From a phage, in assembly GCA_030819375.1 (NCBI GenBank), contig GCA_030819375.1_4699.1: 38,456 bases of DNA; one strand, 5' to 3'. The notes under the pieces are model-generated. The model saw nothing but the letters and a program-made list of their open reading frames with translations. It did not search any database and was not told the origin of the DNA. A program made the translations under genes and the position numbers. Shown in pieces: positions 6,285 through 15,154 of the stretch (positions are counted from its first letter, which is position 1; the number at the start of each line of letters is the position of its first letter).

Positions 6285-8273
6285 ATGGCTATTATTCAGA
6301 ATGTACCGTGTCCTGCTTGCCAAAAGAACGGACATGATATTACTGGCAATCATTTAATGATCTTTGACGACGGGGCAGGATACTGTAATCGTGGTCACTT
6401 CCATGATAACGGTAAACCTTATTACCACAAGCCGGAAGGTGGCATCGAGATAACCGAGTTACCTATTACTGGCAATATCAAATATACACCTTCTCAATTC
6501 AAAGAAATGGAGAAGGAAGGGAAGATAAGCGACCCTAAATTACGTGCCATCGCACTAGGTGGTATGCGTATGAAAGACCGTTGGGAGGTCATGAATGAGC
6601 AAGAAAGGGCAGACCAAGAAGCAGAGTGGAAACTTGATGTTGAATGGTTCCTCACGCTTAAGCGTAAGAACCTTGTTTCCCGACACATTCGCGGTGACAT
6701 TTGCGCATTGTATGATGTACGTGTCGGACACGATGAAGAGGGTAGAGTCACGCGGCATTACTATCCACGCTTCGAGCAAGGTGAGCTAGTAGGAGCTAAG
6801 TGTCGCACATTACCTAAAGACTTTAAGTTTGGTCATTTAGGTAAACTCTTTGGTATGCAAGATCTTTTCGGGATGAATACTTTGTCTCACGTGTTAGACA
6901 GGGGAAGACGAAAGGATTGCTTGCTTATTGTGGGTGGGGAACTGGATGCGCTAGCAGCGCAGCAGATGCTCCTTGATTCTGCCAAGGGTACTAAGTGGGA
7001 AGGTCAACCTTACCATGTATGGTCTGTTAACAAAGGGGAGTCTTGCCTTGAAGAGATTGTACAGAACCGTGAACACATCGCCCAATTCAAGAAGATTATT
7101 TGGGGCTTCGATGGGGATGAGGTAGGGCAGAAGCAGAATCAGCAAGCGGCTCGCCTGTTTCCTGGTAAATCCTATATCCTTGAATACCCCTCTGGTTGCA
7201 AAGATGCTAACAAGGCATTGATGGCTGGCAAGGCTAAAGAATTTGTAGATGCATGGTTTAATGCCAAGTCATCTGATGAAGTCTTTGGTAGCCAGATTAA
7301 ATCTATCGCATCTCAAAGGGATAAGCTCAAGGCTGCACGTCCAGAGCAAGGGTTATCATGGCCTTGGCCTAAGCTGAACAAGGTAACGCTAGGTATTCGT
7401 AAGAACCAGCTTATCATTGTAGGTGCAGGCTCTGGTGTAGGTAAGACTGAGTTCCTTCGCGAAGTGGTTAAGCACCTCATTGAAGAACACGGTGAATCTG
7501 TAGGCATCATTTCTACAGAAGACCCAATGGTCAAGGTGTCCCGTGCTTTTATCGGCAAGTGGATTGATAAGCGTATTGAGTTACCGCCAACCAACGATCC
7601 GAAAGAAGACGGATACCGTGAGGTGTTCGACTACACCGAGGAAGAAGCTAACGCTGCCATTGATTATGTGGCTGATACAGGGAAGCTGTTTGTAGCTGAC
7701 CTAGAGGGTGACTATTCTATGGAGAAGGTAGAGCAAACTTGCCTAGAGTTTGAGGCTATGGGCATTTCTAATATCATCATTGATAACTTAACGGGGATTA
7801 AATTAGATGAGCGTGCTTTTGGTGGGAAGGTTGGTGCACTTGATGAATGCGTCAAGCGGATTGGTACTATCAAAGACAGACATGCAGTTACTATATTCCT
7901 TGTATCACACCTTACACGTCCTCCGGCAAACCGTACCCAACACGAAGAAGGTGGCGAGGTTATCCTTTCTGACTTCCGAGGCTCAGGGGCTATCGGATTC
8001 TGGGCATCTTACGCCTTGGGGATTGAGCGTAACACAAGAGCTGAAACGCTTGATGAAAGAACTACCACGTACATCTCATGTGTCAAAGACCGCGACCAAG
8101 GTATCTACACCGGAACCAAGATCATGCTTAAGGGTGACATTCAAACCGGACGTTTGAGAGAACCTCAAGCCCGTACTAGGTCATTTGACACAGGCGAAGC
8201 AAGGCAACAAGAAGTGCCTGATTTACCGGACACTATAGAAGAGACTAACTTCGATGAAGAAAGTGAGTTTTGA
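6285..8273 (+). CDS. DNA primase/helicase (T7 gp4-like), 662 aa
   Basis: N-terminal Cys4 zinc ribbon (CPACQ...CNRGH), Walker A GAGSGVGKT, acidic C-terminus ending ...FDEESEF. Confidence 0.95.
   Translation: MAIIQNVPCPACQKNGHDITGNHLMIFDDGAGYCNRGHFHDNGKPYYHKPEGGIEITELPITGNIKYTPSQFKEMEKEGKISDPKLRAIALGGMRMKDRWEVMNEQERADQEAEWKLDVEWFLTLKRKNLVSRHIRGDICALYDVRVGHDEEGRVTRHYYPRFEQGELVGAKCRTLPKDFKFGHLGKLFGMQDLFGMNTLSHVLDRGRRKDCLLIVGGELDALAAQQMLLDSAKGTKWEGQPYHVWSVNKGESCLEEIVQNREHIAQFKKIIWGFDGDEVGQKQNQQAARLFPGKSYILEYPSGCKDANKALMAGKAKEFVDAWFNAKSSDEVFGSQIKSIASQRDKLKAARPEQGLSWPWPKLNKVTLGIRKNQLIIVGAGSGVGKTEFLREVVKHLIEEHGESVGIISTEDPMVKVSRAFIGKWIDKRIELPPTNDPKEDGYREVFDYTEEEANAAIDYVADTGKLFVADLEGDYSMEKVEQTCLEFEAMGISNIIIDNLTGIKLDERAFGGKVGALDECVKRIGTIKDRHAVTIFLVSHLTRPPANRTQHEEGGEVILSDFRGSGAIGFWASYALGIERNTRAETLDERTTTYISCVKDRDQGIYTGTKIMLKGDIQTGRLREPQARTRSFDTGEARQQEVPDLPDTIEETNFDEESEF
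8221..8243 (+). promoter_or_regulatory. Phage promoter embedded in the 3' end of the primase/helicase gene
   Basis: ATTTACCGGACACTATAGAAGAG; +1 G at 8238; encodes DLPDTIEE in frame. Confidence 0.65.
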
Positions 8274-9488: not shown

Positions 9489-9596
9489 ATGAATAACTAC
9501 GACTCTGATTGGGATTTCCAAGATTCAATGCAACCTAAACCAGAAAGGAGGGAGGATGAGTTCGAAACAGATCAAATGTACGAGGATTTTTACTAA
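9489..9596 (+). CDS. Small acidic hypothetical peptide (35 aa) overlapping the HNH start
   Basis: GGAGG RBS 9 nt upstream of ATG 9489; MNNYDSDWDFQDSMQPKPERREDEFETDQMYEDFY. Confidence 0.3.
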   Translation: MNNYDSDWDFQDSMQPKPERREDEFETDQMYEDFY

Positions 9597-10035
9597 CTAC
9601 ATCCTCTACTCTGATGGTCGAGTTCTTAACGAGAAAACAGGGCAATACCTAAGAGGTTACTTAGATAAGGATGGGTATCATATTATGAATATTAAAGGGA
9701 AACACCTTAAAGTTCATAGATTAGTTGCTACTCATTTCATACCTAACCCTAATAATTTACCTGAAGTTAACCATAAAGATCATGACCGTCTAAATAATAA
9801 TGATTGGAATCTAGAGTGGTGTACTCATCAAGATAACAACAAGCATAGTTTGCATTTAGTGATAGCTTCTTGTGCTAAACGCTATGACTTTATATCACCA
9901 CAGGGCGTCCATGTAGAAGTCTATAACCTACGTGAATTTTGTAGGAATAATAACCTACAACAATCTCATATGGTTAAGGTAGCTAAAGGTAAAGTAAGAC
10001 ATCATAAAGGTTGGACTAATTATGCTAGATGTTGA
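9556..10035 (+). CDS. HNH homing endonuclease (159 aa)
   Basis: KVHRLVATHFIPNP...EVNHKDHDRLNNNDWNLEWCTHQDN motif; GGAGGGAGG RBS; sits directly upstream of and overlapping the DNA polymerase start. Confidence 0.85.
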   Translation: MSSKQIKCTRIFTNYILYSDGRVLNEKTGQYLRGYLDKDGYHIMNIKGKHLKVHRLVATHFIPNPNNLPEVNHKDHDRLNNNDWNLEWCTHQDNNKHSLHLVIASCAKRYDFISPQGVHVEVYNLREFCRNNNLQQSHMVKVAKGKVRHHKGWTNYARC

Positions 10036-12568
10036 TTGGAAAGAATTTGGAAAGAATCGCATACTTGTCATGGATGCTGAAAGTAAAGGTCTGCTTGATG
10101 CTATTCGCTATGGTCATCGCGAAGACGTGCACATCATTTGCTGCATGGACTTGCTCACTACCGAGGAGTTCCTATTCTTCGACCCATATGAGATGCGTGA
10201 CCCTGAGGCAAGGGAACGCCTGAAGGAGTGGGAAGGCCATCAAGACGGAACCTTGGTTGATGGTGTTAACTTCCTGAAGCATTGTGAAGCTATTGTGTCA
10301 CAGAACTTCCTAGGATATGACGGTCTTCTCTTTGAGAAAGCATTCCCTGATATTTGGAAAGGCTTTAACTATACCGAGAAGCGCGGTAAGGGCAGACTCC
10401 GTGCTGACCTGTGTCCGGTGCGAGTCATGGATACGCTGGTGATGAGTCGCCTGTTAAACCCCGATAGACGCCTTCCTCCGCAAGCATATGCCAAAGGTAT
10501 GGGTAACGTCGCCCCTCACTCAATTGAGGCGCACGGCATCCGTATAGGTCGCTATAAACCGGAGAACGAGGACTGGTCTAAACTAACTGACCACATGGTT
10601 CACCGTGTACGTGAGGACGTGGCGATTGGTCGTGACTTGTTCCTCTGGCTCTTTAACGGGGAATGGATGGAGCACAAACGCCGTGGCGTGAATAAACGCA
10701 CGGGCCTAGGCATTGAGACAGCCTTCCACATGGAGTCCATTGTGGCGCTGGAGATGAGCCGTCAGGCCGAGCGCGGGTTCCGTCTGGACATCGACAAGGC
10801 TTTGGCCCGATGCGAAGAATTGGACGCTAAGATTGATGAGACAGTCGCAGCGTTCCGCCCTCACATGCCTATGCGTATCAAGTCTAAACCTTTTAAACCG
10901 GAAGAAAAGAATGAAGTATGCCAACGCGCAAATGAGTATGGAGCTAGCAACAATATACCTACTGTCCTTGACCCCTCACACTTTCTTCATGCCGAGAGAC
11001 GAGGAGATCGCAAGACAGTATGGAGTGTCACTACTAAGTCTGGTGATTGGTCGGCTAGTGTCAAGAAAGACTTTCCTCACCTTAGAGGAAACCGTAATGA
11101 CACGCCAAGCATCAAGTGGATTGGCGCTTACTCGCCTGTTACTTTCGAAGAGATTCCCTTGGGTAACAGGGATACAGTTAAGCAAGTGCTCTATGATTAT
11201 GGATGGAAAGGTGCTGAATTTAACGATACCGAGCAAGCGCATCTCGATGAGTACGGAGTGTTACCCAAACCTTGGAGTGGTAAGATAAATGAAAAGTCCC
11301 TTACTTTATGGCAAGAAAGAGCCGCACGTGAAGGTAAAACAGTCCCTGATTGGTGCTTGGGTATCGCTGCATGGTACATACTCGTATCCCGTCGTGGTCA
11401 GATACTCAACCGTGGTGACGTTGAAGCCTTCAACGAGAAGGGAACGTGGCCCTCGCAGGCTGGTGTACGAAAGTGTCGCGGCCTTGTACCTGTAGCATTC
11501 AACAAGGAGCTAGGAATCAATGCGCAGCAATACTACGAGAGGTACGGATGTTGGCCTACGTCTGACAAAGATGACGGAGAGTGGCGTGTTCCAGCTGTTG
11601 CTATTAGCATTGGCACTTCTACGTTCCGTATGCGTCATCGTAACGTGGTCAATATTCCTGCCCGTGGCTTGTATCCTTTACGTGATTTATTCATAGCAGG
11701 GAAAGGCAAGCTAATCCTTGGTTGTGACGGTGCAGGTCTTGAACTGCGTGTCCTGTCTCACTTCATGAATGACCCTGAGTACCAAGAGATTGTACTGCAC
11801 GGTGATATTCATACGCATAACCAGATGAAGGCTGGTCTTCCTAAGCGTGATATGGCGAAGACGTTTATATACGCCTTCCTCTATGGCTCTGGTATAGCCA
11901 ACCTTGCAGCAGTATGTGGTGTTACTGAGGAAGAAATGAAGGAAGTTGTGGCAAGATTCGAGATTGAACTGCCGTCTCTTGCACGTCTTCGTGAGAATGT
12001 TATCGCACAAGGTAACAAGTTTGGCTACCTGCAAGCACCTGATGGGCATTGGGGTCGCATCCGCATGTCTGGTGGTGAACTTAAAGAGCACACGATGCTT
12101 AACGTATTACTCCAGATGACTGGCTCTTTGTGTATGAAATATGCATTAGTCAAGGCATTTGCAGTAATGCGCAAGGAAGGTGTAGCCTTGGACGCTATGG
12201 GAAATCCTTGTGGTGTGGCTAACGTGCATGATGAAATCCAGATGGAAGTTCCTGAAGAGGAGGTCTTGTATCTTAACTACGACCTACCTTTCACCTTAGA
12301 TGGGTTCGAAACAGAGAAGGCTGCCGTGCAAGCAGTGTTCGATGCAGAGGAGAAACGTGTTCATGTGGATTCTGAAGGACGTATGTGGTCTGCTGCAAAC
12401 CTCGTTAGTGTTGATGCTGATGCTGGTGTATTGCATTGCCAGCGCCGTTATCACCGTGCAGGTCATATCATTGCCGACGCCATGACTTGGGCAGGGCAGT
12501 ATCTGAAGATGCGTTGCCCGATGGCAGGCGAATATAAGATTGGCGCAAGTTGGAAGGAAACACACTGA
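10022..12568 (+). CDS. DNA polymerase, family A (T7 gp5-like), 848 aa
   Basis: Exo I motif ILVMDAE, motif B KTFIYAFLYGSG, motif C VHDEIQ; size close to what I recall for SP6-type polymerases. Confidence 0.95.
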   Translation: MLDVDWKEFGKNRILVMDAESKGLLDAIRYGHREDVHIICCMDLLTTEEFLFFDPYEMRDPEARERLKEWEGHQDGTLVDGVNFLKHCEAIVSQNFLGYDGLLFEKAFPDIWKGFNYTEKRGKGRLRADLCPVRVMDTLVMSRLLNPDRRLPPQAYAKGMGNVAPHSIEAHGIRIGRYKPENEDWSKLTDHMVHRVREDVAIGRDLFLWLFNGEWMEHKRRGVNKRTGLGIETAFHMESIVALEMSRQAERGFRLDIDKALARCEELDAKIDETVAAFRPHMPMRIKSKPFKPEEKNEVCQRANEYGASNNIPTVLDPSHFLHAERRGDRKTVWSVTTKSGDWSASVKKDFPHLRGNRNDTPSIKWIGAYSPVTFEEIPLGNRDTVKQVLYDYGWKGAEFNDTEQAHLDEYGVLPKPWSGKINEKSLTLWQERAAREGKTVPDWCLGIAAWYILVSRRGQILNRGDVEAFNEKGTWPSQAGVRKCRGLVPVAFNKELGINAQQYYERYGCWPTSDKDDGEWRVPAVAISIGTSTFRMRHRNVVNIPARGLYPLRDLFIAGKGKLILGCDGAGLELRVLSHFMNDPEYQEIVLHGDIHTHNQMKAGLPKRDMAKTFIYAFLYGSGIANLAAVCGVTEEEMKEVVARFEIELPSLARLRENVIAQGNKFGYLQAPDGHWGRIRMSGGELKEHTMLNVLLQMTGSLCMKYALVKAFAVMRKEGVALDAMGNPCGVANVHDEIQMEVPEEEVLYLNYDLPFTLDGFETEKAAVQAVFDAEEKRVHVDSEGRMWSAANLVSVDADAGVLHCQRRYHRAGHIIADAMTWAGQYLKMRCPMAGEYKIGASWKETH

Positions 12569-12684
12569 TGGATAGGCTTGACATTGTTTACCTCTTCTTC
12601 ACTTTCTTTCTTACACTCCTTATGCTTGCTTGTTATGGGAGTATGAGACTAGATATACCTGATGAAGAAGAGGGTTACGACTAA
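12568..12684 (+). CDS. Small hydrophobic peptide (38 aa), candidate membrane protein
   Basis: ATG overlaps DNAP stop (tgATG); MDRLDIVYLFFTFFLTLLMLACYGSMRLDIPDEEEGYD. Confidence 0.35.
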   Translation: MDRLDIVYLFFTFFLTLLMLACYGSMRLDIPDEEEGYD

Positions 12685-12782
12685 TGCAAACTGCTTTTAT
12701 TATTCTTGGTATCATATTATTTATGGTAGTATTCTGGGCTTTCTCTGGCATTGACCCAGATTGTGATGGTAACTACGACTGA
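12684..12782 (+). CDS. Small hydrophobic peptide (32 aa), similar design to the preceding one
   Basis: taATG overlap; MQTAFIILGIILFMVVFWAFSGIDPDCDGNYD; one TM-like helix then acidic tail ending YD. Confidence 0.35.
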   Translation: MQTAFIILGIILFMVVFWAFSGIDPDCDGNYD

Positions 12783-12791
12783 GTTATACTC

Positions 12792-12813
12792 AAGGTCACT
12801 TACGAGTGGCCTT
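12792..12813 (+). other. Hairpin (stem aaggtcact/agtggcctt, loop UACG) with the same flanks as the 31213 element
   Basis: ttatactcaagg-[hairpin]-cctttatga framework shared with 31204-31246. Confidence 0.35.
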
Positions 12814-12840
12814 TATGAATAACTTAACTAAGGAAATATT

Positions 12841-13101
12841 ATGATTAAATATACTTCTTATCAGTTAACTAAAGACCGTAAGATAGGTATTGAGGTTAAG
12901 GCTTGGGAGCGAGGTCCTATCTCTGGAGTAATAGAGGTGCGTTCCAATGAAGGTATGATGATTAGAAGACACTTTAGTTTCGCTAAATCTACTTGTAAGC
13001 ATTTAACAGAGGAACAATTCTTACATCATATTATTAATAATATTAAAGCCATCCAGCCTTATGCCAAGCAAGTTGTAGGTAATGTCACAGTAGTACATTG
13101 A
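12841..13101 (+). CDS. Hypothetical protein (86 aa)
   Basis: AAGGA RBS; ORF track. Confidence 0.6.
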   Translation: MIKYTSYQLTKDRKIGIEVKAWERGPISGVIEVRSNEGMMIRRHFSFAKSTCKHLTEEQFLHHIINNIKAIQPYAKQVVGNVTVVH

Positions 13102-13123
13102 TTTACTGGACACTATAGAAGGA
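13101..13123 (+). promoter_or_regulatory. Phage-RNAP promoter (ATTTACTGGACACTATAGAAGGA)
   Basis: Consensus copy overlapping the stop codon of the upstream gene; +1 G at 13118. Confidence 0.8.
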
Positions 13124-13187
13124 AAGCCTAGACAATCTAGGTTTATAAGGTAGTATAGGTAATTAAGTAAATATAGGAGAGATAAAT

Positions 13188-13565
13188 ATGTCTATGGTAA
13201 CTACTCTGGTATTCGTAGCTCAATACTTTCGTGGTCTTGCTAATAAGTTCAAGTCCAAGGCTATCAAAGCTATTGAGTCTCGCATCGAGGCAGTACAGGC
13301 AGAGCAAGTTAAAGTTGAAGAACATCGCAGCTCTCAAATGATTGACTGCCATAACCGCCACTATTCATCTCGTGATGACCTTAATGCACGCCAAGTCAAA
13401 GAGGTTGAAGAGATGCTGGCACGTCACCAGCAAGAGCGCGACAGCCTGAAAGCTGAATTTGAAGAGAACAAGGCATCCATCGCCCTTGTACATCAAGCCG
13501 CATCTGACAGCCTGAAGAAAGAGATTGTTATGCTGGAAATTGAGTTAGACAACCTGACCAAATAA
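13188..13565 (+). CDS. Hypothetical protein (125 aa) with short hydrophobic N-terminus and predicted coiled coil
   Basis: AGGAGA RBS; heptad-like charged repeats; no embedded lipoprotein ORF found in the other frames. Confidence 0.65.
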   Translation: MSMVTTLVFVAQYFRGLANKFKSKAIKAIESRIEAVQAEQVKVEEHRSSQMIDCHNRHYSSRDDLNARQVKEVEEMLARHQQERDSLKAEFEENKASIALVHQAASDSLKKEIVMLEIELDNLTK

Positions 13566-13586
13566 TTACTGGACACTATAGAACAA
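13565..13586 (+). promoter_or_regulatory. Phage-RNAP promoter (AATTACTGGACACTATAGAACA)
   Basis: Consensus copy overlapping the stop of the upstream gene; +1 G at 13581. Confidence 0.7.
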
Positions 13587-13642
13587 TAGGTCGGCTTAGT
13601 TCGGCCTATGATTGTGTAGTGTAACAATAGGAGACTAAATAA

Positions 13643-14449
13643 ATGGCACGTGGTGATTTTGATTTTGGTGCTCAGGTTACTAAAGCTGAAGGTAAGGTTT
13701 TTAAGAACCCTGAAGTTGGTGATCATGAAGCAGTAATCTCTGGCATCATTCATGTGGGTTCCTTCCAAGATATCTTTAAGAAAGGTAATACCACTGAAGT
13801 TAAGAAGCCAGCAAACTTTGTTCTTGTTAAGATTGTACTGATGGGTGACGATGACAAGAACGAAGATGATTCTCGCATGGAACAGTGGATGGCTGTGCCT
13901 CTGAAGTCTGGTGACAAGGCAACCTTGACTAAGTTCCTGAATGCAGTTGACCCTAAAGAGCTGCTTGGTGGTTTCGATGACTTCATTGGTGAATGCCTGA
14001 CTGCAACTATGGTTGGCTCTGGCGACAAGAAGGATGATGGTACTTTCAAGTATGTTAACTGGAAAGGCTTTGGCGGTATGCCTGATAAGTTGAAGAAGCT
14101 TGTAATGGCTCAGGTAGAAGAGGAAGGTCTGTCTATGACAGGTCATATCACCTTCGACAAGCTGACCAAAGAAATCCTTGATGACATTCCTGCTAACTTG
14201 GTACGTCAATACTTCCTGAACGAGACACCTCGTGGTAAGAACCTGTCTGTTGCTGGCTCTCACGTAGAAGCTATTATCAAAGCTGCTCGTGAAGAAGACC
14301 CTGAATGGAAGAAGGCTAAGAAGAAAGACGAGGAAGATGCTACTCCAGCTAATCGTAAGTCTCTGGATACTGGCGAGTCTGTTCCACAGGAAGTACCTGA
14401 AGCAGAAGATACTCCTGCACCGGAGATGGATGAGGACGCGGAATATTAA
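13643..14449 (+). CDS. Putative ssDNA-binding protein (gp2.5-like), 268 aa; function inferred
   Basis: Strong RBS (AGGAGA) directly after a promoter; size and acidic C-terminal tail ending in an aromatic residue (...PEMDEDAEY) resemble T7 gp2.5. Confidence 0.45.
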   Translation: MARGDFDFGAQVTKAEGKVFKNPEVGDHEAVISGIIHVGSFQDIFKKGNTTEVKKPANFVLVKIVLMGDDDKNEDDSRMEQWMAVPLKSGDKATLTKFLNAVDPKELLGGFDDFIGECLTATMVGSGDKKDDGTFKYVNWKGFGGMPDKLKKLVMAQVEEEGLSMTGHITFDKLTKEILDDIPANLVRQYFLNETPRGKNLSVAGSHVEAIIKAAREEDPEWKKAKKKDEEDATPANRKSLDTGESVPQEVPEAEDTPAPEMDEDAEY

Positions 14450-14782: not shown

Positions 14783-15154
14783 ATGTTCAAGATTGAAACT
14801 ATCGTAAACCGTGTTGTTAAAGGTGCTGCTCTGGTATCCGTTGAGTCTTTCATTATCGTCGATGAAGATGATCAACTGGTAGCTGGTACTAAGGCTTACG
14901 ATACCCGTGAAGAAGCTCAGGCTAAGATTGACAGCATGGGTAACTTCGCTGCTGGTCTGGAGTTCGCTCGTGCTTGCTTCCCTGAGCAGGCTGACAAAGC
15001 TCAGATTGGTAAGGCTAATATCGTAGCTGAATATCTGGATTGGGTTGCTGCTGGTAAACCAATGAAAGAAATTAAGGCTGCTGAAGAAGCTGAAGCTCCA
15101 GCAGAAGAAGTAGCTGCACCGGAAACTCCGGTAAGCGAAGAGGAAGAATTTTGA
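14783..15154 (+). CDS. Acidic hypothetical protein (123 aa) ending ...SEEEEF; gene sits between a promoter and a terminator
   Basis: Promoter 14710 upstream, terminator 15213 downstream; acidic C-terminal tail ending in Phe. Confidence 0.8.
   Translation: MFKIETIVNRVVKGAALVSVESFIIVDEDDQLVAGTKAYDTREEAQAKIDSMGNFAAGLEFARACFPEQADKAQIGKANIVAEYLDWVAAGKPMKEIKAAEEAEAPAEEVAAPETPVSEEEEF

Follow-up and report, generated by a model that had tools for sequence, protein, structure and literature searches.

Two overlapping small genes follow the DNA polymerase gene

The window analysed here, a stretch of phage DNA of 38,456 nucleotides (contig GCA_030819375.1_4699.1 of GenBank assembly GCA_030819375.1), carries two short open reading frames (ORFs), termed ORF1 and ORF2, directly behind its DNA polymerase (DNAP) gene. 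The DNAP gene (10022..12568, + strand; K1E gene 13, 848 amino acids) ends with the stop codon TGA at 12566-12568, which shares a base with the start codon of ORF1. ORF1 (12568..12684, + strand), a homologue of gene 13.5 with a product of 38 amino acids (MDRLDIVYLFFTFFLTLLMLACYGSMRLDIPDEEEGYD), runs from an ATG at 12568-12570 (tgATG) to a TAA at 12682-12684. ORF2 (12684..12782, + strand) is a homologue of gene 14 (SP6 gp15), encodes 32 amino acids (MQTAFIILGIILFMVVFWAFSGIDPDCDGNYD) and starts in the same manner on the stop codon of ORF1, with an ATG at 12684-12686 (taATG). An earlier note, made from the sequence alone, had described two frames of 38 and 32 codons that each start on the preceding stop, and both the sequence and the ORF list bear this out.

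A possible earlier start for ORF1 is an in-frame TTG at 12550, which reads CTG in several relatives and GTG in the relatives L092/95/96. Since the codon is CTG in several relatives, we take the ATG at 12568 as the true start. Shine-Dalgarno-like motifs precede both start codons: AAGGA (12554..12558, + strand; AAGGAG in several relatives) lies inside the DNAP codons for W-K-E, 9 nucleotides 5' of the ORF1 ATG, and GAGGG (12670..12674, + strand) lies inside the codons for E-E-G of the ORF1 tail, 9-10 nucleotides 5' of the ORF2 ATG. The start region of ORF1 is unstructured (fold z = +1.8), and the fold around the ORF2 start is not unusual in its stability. A fusion of DNAP and ORF1 by frameshifting or read-through was rejected: ACACACTGATGG contains no slippery sequence, the junction is variable (TGATG, TAATG, TAGTG) and a homing endonuclease gene can be inserted there.

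Both products have the same general architecture. ORF1 consists of a short N-terminus, a single hydrophobic helix and the acidic tail IPDEEEGYD (tail region written SMRLDIPDEEEGYD); ORF2, which contains neither K nor R, consists of a single hydrophobic helix and the acidic tail DPDCDGNYD (GIDPDCDGNYD with the preceding residues), so that both tails end in YD. The best 19-residue Kyte-Doolittle means were 2.25 for ORF1 and 2.68 for ORF2, both in the range of a bilayer-spanning hydrophobic segment. AlphaFold2 single-sequence models predicted a helix at residues 3-28 of ORF1 and 2-20 of ORF2, each followed by a coil tail, and the net charge over the last 15 residues is -5 and -4, respectively. 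The second structural claim of the earlier note, that each peptide has one hydrophobic helix and behind it an acidic tail with YD at its end, thus agrees with hydropathy, model and sequence.

In spite of this resemblance, the idea that the two genes are tandem paralogues found no support. An hhalign comparison of ORF1 and ORF2 gave a probability of 1% (E = 0.055) with only PD..YD aligned. The observed score was reached by 1097 of 5000 architecture-preserving shuffles (p ~0.22), by 311 of 5000 when the tails alone were compared (p ~0.06) and by 167 of 2000 at the DNA level.

Both reading frames are under purifying selection

Hydrophobicity alone proves nothing about these frames, since ~12% of the small ORFs on the + strand in related loci pass the same threshold, and the decision was therefore left to comparative data. 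IMG/VR loci and GenBank records together supplied 20 different DNA sequences for ORF1 and 12 for ORF2, and from these we calculated pooled Nei-Gojobori ratios of nonsynonymous to synonymous differences (pN/pS). In the annotated frames the ratio was 0.22 for ORF1 and 0.23 for ORF2; the two other frames gave 0.82-0.92.

The tails are the most constrained part of both peptides. In the ORF1 tail (codons 30-38) nucleotide variants were found in six of nine codons, with an amino-acid difference in two of them, a conservative change from I to V and a premature stop in L097. In the ORF2 tail (codons 23-32) five of ten codons are variable and the residue is altered in two. Invariant columns comprise M19, A21-S25 and I30-D38 in ORF1 and W18, F20-G22, D24-D26 and D28-D32 in ORF2, which in both cases places them in the tail and in the part of the helix next to it. 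The resulting near-invariant motifs are A-C-Y-G-S and I-P-D-E-E-E-G-Y-D in ORF1 and W-x-F-S-G and D-P-D-x-D-G-N-Y-D in ORF2, and the N-terminal halves of both helices exchange freely among hydrophobic residues. Judged by the low, frame-specific pN/pS values and by tails that stay nearly invariant despite synonymous changes, ORF1 and ORF2 are real coding genes under purifying selection as proteins. Frames not conserved in relatives would, according to the earlier note, have spoken against the genes; we found the opposite. An alternative-frame ORF of 30 amino acids at 12662..12754 was rejected, its conservation being a by-product (pN/pS of that frame ~0.8-0.9).

The families are confined to K1E- and SP6-like phages

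A search with 1.2 kb around ORF1 and ORF2 yielded 93 matches among phage records, with identities of 80-99.5%. Nearly all of them belong to Vectrevirus (K1E/K1-5-like) or to related SP6-like podoviruses in Molineuxvirinae, a subfamily of the Autographiviridae. By these matches the window is a Vectrevirus of the K1E/K1-5-like type within the SP6-like group.

Both genes are already known as annotated hypothetical genes and have reportedly been catalogued since the genome papers of SP6, K1-5 and K1E. ORF1 is annotated as gene 13.5 in K1E and K1-5 (YP_424989, AAR90054), and ORF2 as gene 14 in K1E, K1-5 and SP6 ('14' in AY370673) or as 'gp15' in the other SP6 numbering (AAP48754). In the genome paper of UAB_Phi78 the homologue of ORF2 appears as 'Unknown, Gp15 [SP6]' (PMC4837284). 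In profile searches ORF1 matched phrog_15860 (E = 1.6e-26, residues 1-38 on profile positions 1-38) and ORF2 matched phrog_4539 over its full length (E = 2.9e-17); neither PHROG has an assigned function. The literature, searched by the peptide sequences, the locus tags and gp13.5, yielded no functional study. ORF1 is unannotated in, for example, vB_EcoP_B/C/D/K/R, CC1, R4596 and Raoultella P3a, and was thus missed by several annotation pipelines. As it stands, the finding of these two genuine genes is an ordinary result.

To define the reach of the families we combined several searches. With tblastn, ORF1 was found in 68 phage records, none of them from Salmonella phages, and ORF2 in 69, SP6-type Salmonella phages included. 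The ORF1 peptide is 100% identical to the copies in vB_Ec-G9 and T205P5, and the ORF2 peptide is 100% identical in at least 16 phage records. Protein searches with a 44-residue version of ORF1 extended to the TTG returned seven protein clusters, all on phage contigs of ~44 kb, and phmmer with ORF2 against 1.84 billion representatives returned its own cluster only (a single 50% cluster). Pfam and NCBIfam searches with both ORFs gave nothing. The tails were also searched as degenerate back-translated DNA patterns; these had no match in 185,579 bacterial and archaeal genomes and were present in three phage-sized contigs of a metagenome collection and in seven IMG/VR contigs. On this evidence both families are confined to the K1E/SP6-like phage group.

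ORF1 and ORF2 are gained and lost independently

Within this group the two genes occur in all combinations. Both are present in K1E, K1-5, LL11, ULINTec7 and others. KMB14, CrRp3, LF31P3, CC1, R4596, Raoultella P3a and NTNC80A contain ORF1 only, and SP6, UAB_Phi78, Kenya-K30, GRNsp51 and mutPK1A2 contain ORF2 only, directly on the DNAP stop. Neither ORF is found in five further relatives (L008, L010, L011, L013 and L024). ORF1 and ORF2 are not an obligate pair, and each is individually dispensable. The earlier note had treated them as paired small membrane peptides; of this description the tandem position and the shared architecture stand, but the pairing is not obligatory among close relatives.

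The joints between present and missing genes always fall at a short repeated motif, ACNACTRA(TG), which is found at the end of DNAP (ACACACTGA), of ORF1 (TACGACTAA) and of ORF2 (TACGACTGA). Each gene thus acts as a cassette, and its loss or gain leaves the stop/start overlap intact. The overlap is retained across these changes: the window has TGATG, L092/95/96 have TAGTG, in which GTG serves as the start codon, and in the SP6-type arrangement TAATG is formed with the DNAP stop itself. In NTNC80A (and likewise in L091) a homing endonuclease gene has been inserted and ORF1 starts on its stop, again as TAATG; the ORF1 N-terminus of NTNC80A now reads MSTSD. Damaged ORF1 alleles are consistent with dispensability: Mt1B1_P10 has a premature TAG, ULINTec6 has a frameshift, and a further allele yields a frameshifted product of 61 residues, P0007. 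A decayed ORF2 in L004 was not counted as a pseudogene, as its homopolymer-type indels may be assembly errors, and a 32-residue ORF ending in YD in L028 was set aside as a probably spurious alternative frame of a nucleotidyltransferase-like gene.

A separate observation concerns an uncultured SP6-like lineage (L034-L036, L043 and L045; DNAP C-terminus ~56% identical), in which two hydrophobic ORFs (30 and 32 amino acids) with strong Shine-Dalgarno sequences, unrelated to ORF1 and ORF2, lie within the first ~210 nucleotides after the DNAP stop. This pair has a pN/pS of 0.73-0.76, an estimate into which very few substitutions enter, and a frameshift is present in one copy.

Transcription unit and neighbouring genes

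Six SP6-type promoters (ATTTACTGGACACTATAGAAGG-like, 0-3 mismatches; 0 expected by chance) were found on the + strand at 8221, 13101, 13564, 14710, 23070 and 38412, and these define the transcription units of the window. The promoter at 8221..8242 (ATTTACCGGACACTATAGAAGA, + strand), a match to the consensus, heads the unit with DNAP, ORF1 and ORF2; the next one, an exact match at 13101..13122 (ATTTACTGGACACTATAGAAGG, + strand), starts the following unit with the gene 15 homologue. The consensus scan gave no match between 8221 and 13101, so that ORF1 and ORF2 have no promoter of their own and are therefore the last genes of the 8221 unit, which includes an HNH endonuclease gene and DNAP.

At the ORF2 stop codon begins a conserved RNA hairpin with a UACG loop (12780..12826, + strand; free energy -17.5 kcal/mol, z = -3.8). 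In 13 distinct relatives the pairing of the inner helix is complete (100%), and two pairs are changed on both sides in a compensatory manner in L011/L013. Where a downstream cassette is missing, the same hairpin abuts the stop of DNAP or of ORF1. A scan of 12000-13700 against Rfam matched no family, the hairpin included, and only UUUAU follows on its 3' side. Possible roles of the hairpin are RNA processing, weak termination and stabilisation of the 3' end.

Endonuclease genes are found at both ends of DNAP. The HNH endonuclease gene of the window (9556..10035, + strand) overlaps the DNAP start, and in the relatives L016, L020, L041/L042 and L091 HNH or homing endonuclease genes are inserted directly 3' of the DNAP stop, which marks both ends of the gene as insertion hot spots. 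Between the hairpin and the next promoter lies an ORF of 86 amino acids (12841..13101, + strand), an insertion relative to K1E that is present, truncated or absent in relatives; it has a sub-threshold match to PF24608, a putative phage PDDEXK endonuclease (21.6 bits, cutoff 27). The product of the gene 15 homologue (13188..13565, + strand) begins with a short hydrophobic segment, behind which lies a coiled coil. It is called 'polysaccharide chain length determinant protein' in RefSeq and in PHROG 7450, a name based on a coiled-coil match of 20.8 bits (cutoff 278.85) and probably a propagated misnomer.

Possible function of the two peptides

To account for these observations we tentatively propose, with less than even confidence, that ORF1 and ORF2 specify two separate, dispensable inner-membrane microproteins, which would be made together with the DNA-metabolism genes and would each bind a specific partner. 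Both would be the last genes on the middle (DNA-metabolism) transcript, which also carries DNAP, and ribosomes terminating on the upstream gene would probably restart on the overlapping start codon, aided by the Shine-Dalgarno-like motifs. Each product would be a single-pass inner-membrane microprotein with a hydrophobic helix of ~19 residues and an acidic tail of 10-14 residues. It would bind its partner at one face of the membrane rather than disturb the bilayer generally, since the target of selection is the tail with the interface residues and not the whole helix. The partner would most likely be a host envelope protein, or else the entry machinery of a competitor; either is favoured over a core phage function because the distribution of the genes is accessory. 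Both genes would be accessory cassettes gained and lost independently at stop/start junctions, and their role would then be conditional, depending on host or competitor and lying outside core replication. That the peptides insert into the membrane, that re-initiation couples their translation and that each binds a specific partner are all inferences.

Several points weigh against it. Translation, membrane insertion and the partner are predictions. The sequences compared are close kin (75-100% identical), and the pN/pS values derive from few substitutions. The absence of K and R from ORF2 and the single R on each side of the helix in ORF1 give no prediction of topology. Pfam, NCBIfam, PHROG and phmmer searches returned no homologue of known function, and the case for partner binding is the conservation pattern itself. 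The Shine-Dalgarno motif for ORF2, embedded in the ORF1 tail, could reinforce the conservation of that tail; countering this explanation, the tail protein is likewise conserved, with synonymous changes, in the phages that carry ORF1 only.

Competition between phages offers a different role, superinfection exclusion, which the earlier note had named as an option: from the inner membrane, the peptides would block the genome entry of a second, related phage, for instance via its ejected internal-core channel. Their small size, predicted membrane location and variable, accessory presence within one phage group fit genes of phage-phage competition, and so does middle-period expression from the DNAP unit. 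PHROG, Pfam and NCBIfam searches, however, linked the peptides to no known exclusion protein, exclusion confined to the middle period brings little benefit to a lytic podovirus whose latent period is short, and the sequences contain no pointer to the entry apparatus, which leaves this role an unlikely one. We likewise give little credence to a more general action on the membrane, in which the peptides would oligomerise in the manner of type I toxins or holins and depolarise or permeabilise the inner membrane for host shut-off or lysis timing. TisB, Ldr, Ibs and Hok are small type I toxin peptides with a single hydrophobic helix, and a length of 32-38 residues with one such helix is what ORF1 and ORF2 share with them. 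Yet the helices lack polar or charged residues that could line a pore, the tails are strongly acidic instead of basic, the invariant residues lie in the tail and the interface and not along the helix, and the genes belong to the DNA-metabolism unit and not to the late genes.

The position behind DNAP could also point to replication. The acidic C-terminal tails of T7 gp2.5 and gp4 dock on T7 DNA polymerase, and their terminal aromatic residue is critical for it. Cytoplasmic tails of ORF1 and ORF2 might mimic such C-termini of the phage helicase and single-stranded DNA-binding protein (SSB)-like protein, dock on the DNAP made from the same mRNA and thereby tether the replisome to the inner membrane or throttle it there. 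Favouring this, the two genes lie directly 3' of DNAP with predicted translational coupling, their tails are the most conserved part, and the phage itself encodes proteins with T7 gp4/gp2.5-like acidic tails that end in an aromatic residue: a primase-helicase (6285..8273, ...NFDEESEF), a 268-residue SSB-like protein (13643..14449, ...EMDEDAEY), a 123-residue protein (14783..15154, ...SEEEEF) and a 35-residue ORF (9489..9596, ...YEDFY), all on the + strand. The idea becomes very unlikely in view of phages that lack one or both peptides although the C-terminal 249 residues of their DNAP are 92-96% identical to those of the window, and of NTNC80A, where ORF1 is coupled to the inserted homing endonuclease gene and not to DNAP. 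Moreover, the aromatic residue of ORF1 and ORF2 is penultimate and followed by D, which differs from the terminal aromatic of T7-type docking tails. Hardly any weight, finally, falls on the view that the peptide products are irrelevant, either because the ORFs only carry ribosomes to the conserved hairpin or because the conservation lies at the RNA or DNA level. The stop of the last ORF always abuts that hairpin and several ORF1 alleles are damaged, as this view would have it, but the frame-specific synonymous excess and the invariant tails with synonymous variation argue for selection on amino acids, and where the ORFs are missing the hairpin directly follows DNAP, so that this geometry does not depend on them.

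One further feature concerns the ORF2 tail. EF-hand-like calcium loops consist of D-x-D-x-D-G and ligands at position 9, with a Glu at position 12 in EF-hands. The tail D24-P-D-C-D-G-N-Y-D32 fits DxDxDGxxD, with these positions invariant; the protein ends at position 9, and Pfam gives no hit. By motif resemblance, the DPDxDGNYD tail may be a minimal calcium-binding loop displayed in the periplasm. ORF1 contains no DxDxDG motif.

Should the preferred reading of partner-binding microproteins be correct, ORF1 and ORF2 would be compact, genetically tractable phage membrane microproteins with a clear functional determinant, the invariant acidic tail of 9-10 residues, and the natural presence/absence variants already offer near-isogenic comparisons. 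A partner, if found, could expose a vulnerability of the host envelope relevant to phage therapy with K1-capsule phages, or a link between replication and the membrane.

Comparison with known systems

The closest known counterparts are the annotated genes themselves. The gene 13.5 product of K1E and K1-5 (PHROG 15860) is encoded by the same gene as ORF1, in the same place on the DNAP stop and with 38 amino acids; it is 79-100% identical across Vectrevirus records without a substantive difference, and is absent from SP6-type (Zindervirus) phages. The gene 14 product of K1E and K1-5, or SP6 gp15 (PHROG 4539), corresponds in the same way to ORF2, with 32 amino acids and 75-100% identity in Vectrevirus and Zindervirus. 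Unlike ORF2 of the window, the SP6-type gene 14 lies directly on the DNAP stop, because gene 13.5 is absent.

TisB, Hok, Ldr/Ibs and phage holins are likewise small hydrophobic single-helix peptides on mobile elements. ORF1 and ORF2 differ from these classes in their acidic tails, in helices without polar residues, in a location outside the lysis region and in the conservation of the tail. With the tails of T7 gp2.5 and gp4 they have in common the acidic character and an aromatic residue near the C-terminus, and their genes adjoin the polymerase gene; in contrast to the T7 tails, the aromatic residue is not terminal, and the peptides are predicted to be membrane-anchored and are dispensable in close relatives. 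In phi29, p16.7 and p1 are membrane organisers of replication that work differently from the tether considered here, and neither ORF1 nor ORF2 is similar to them. A replisome tether, if true, would be the counterpart in the T7 supergroup of such membrane-organised phage replication, using peptides of only 32-38 residues.

For the mode of action that we favour, the bacterial microproteins AcrZ, MgrB, MgtS and CydX provide the model. These are single-helix regulatory proteins of the inner membrane that act by binding larger membrane proteins. ORF1 and ORF2 have no sequence similarity to them, and differ in their strongly acidic tails and in the restriction of their genes to phages. Alike are the size of ~30-50 amino acids and the single transmembrane helix, and by analogy we suggest that ORF1 and ORF2 may act as AcrZ and MgrB do, by binding a larger membrane protein.

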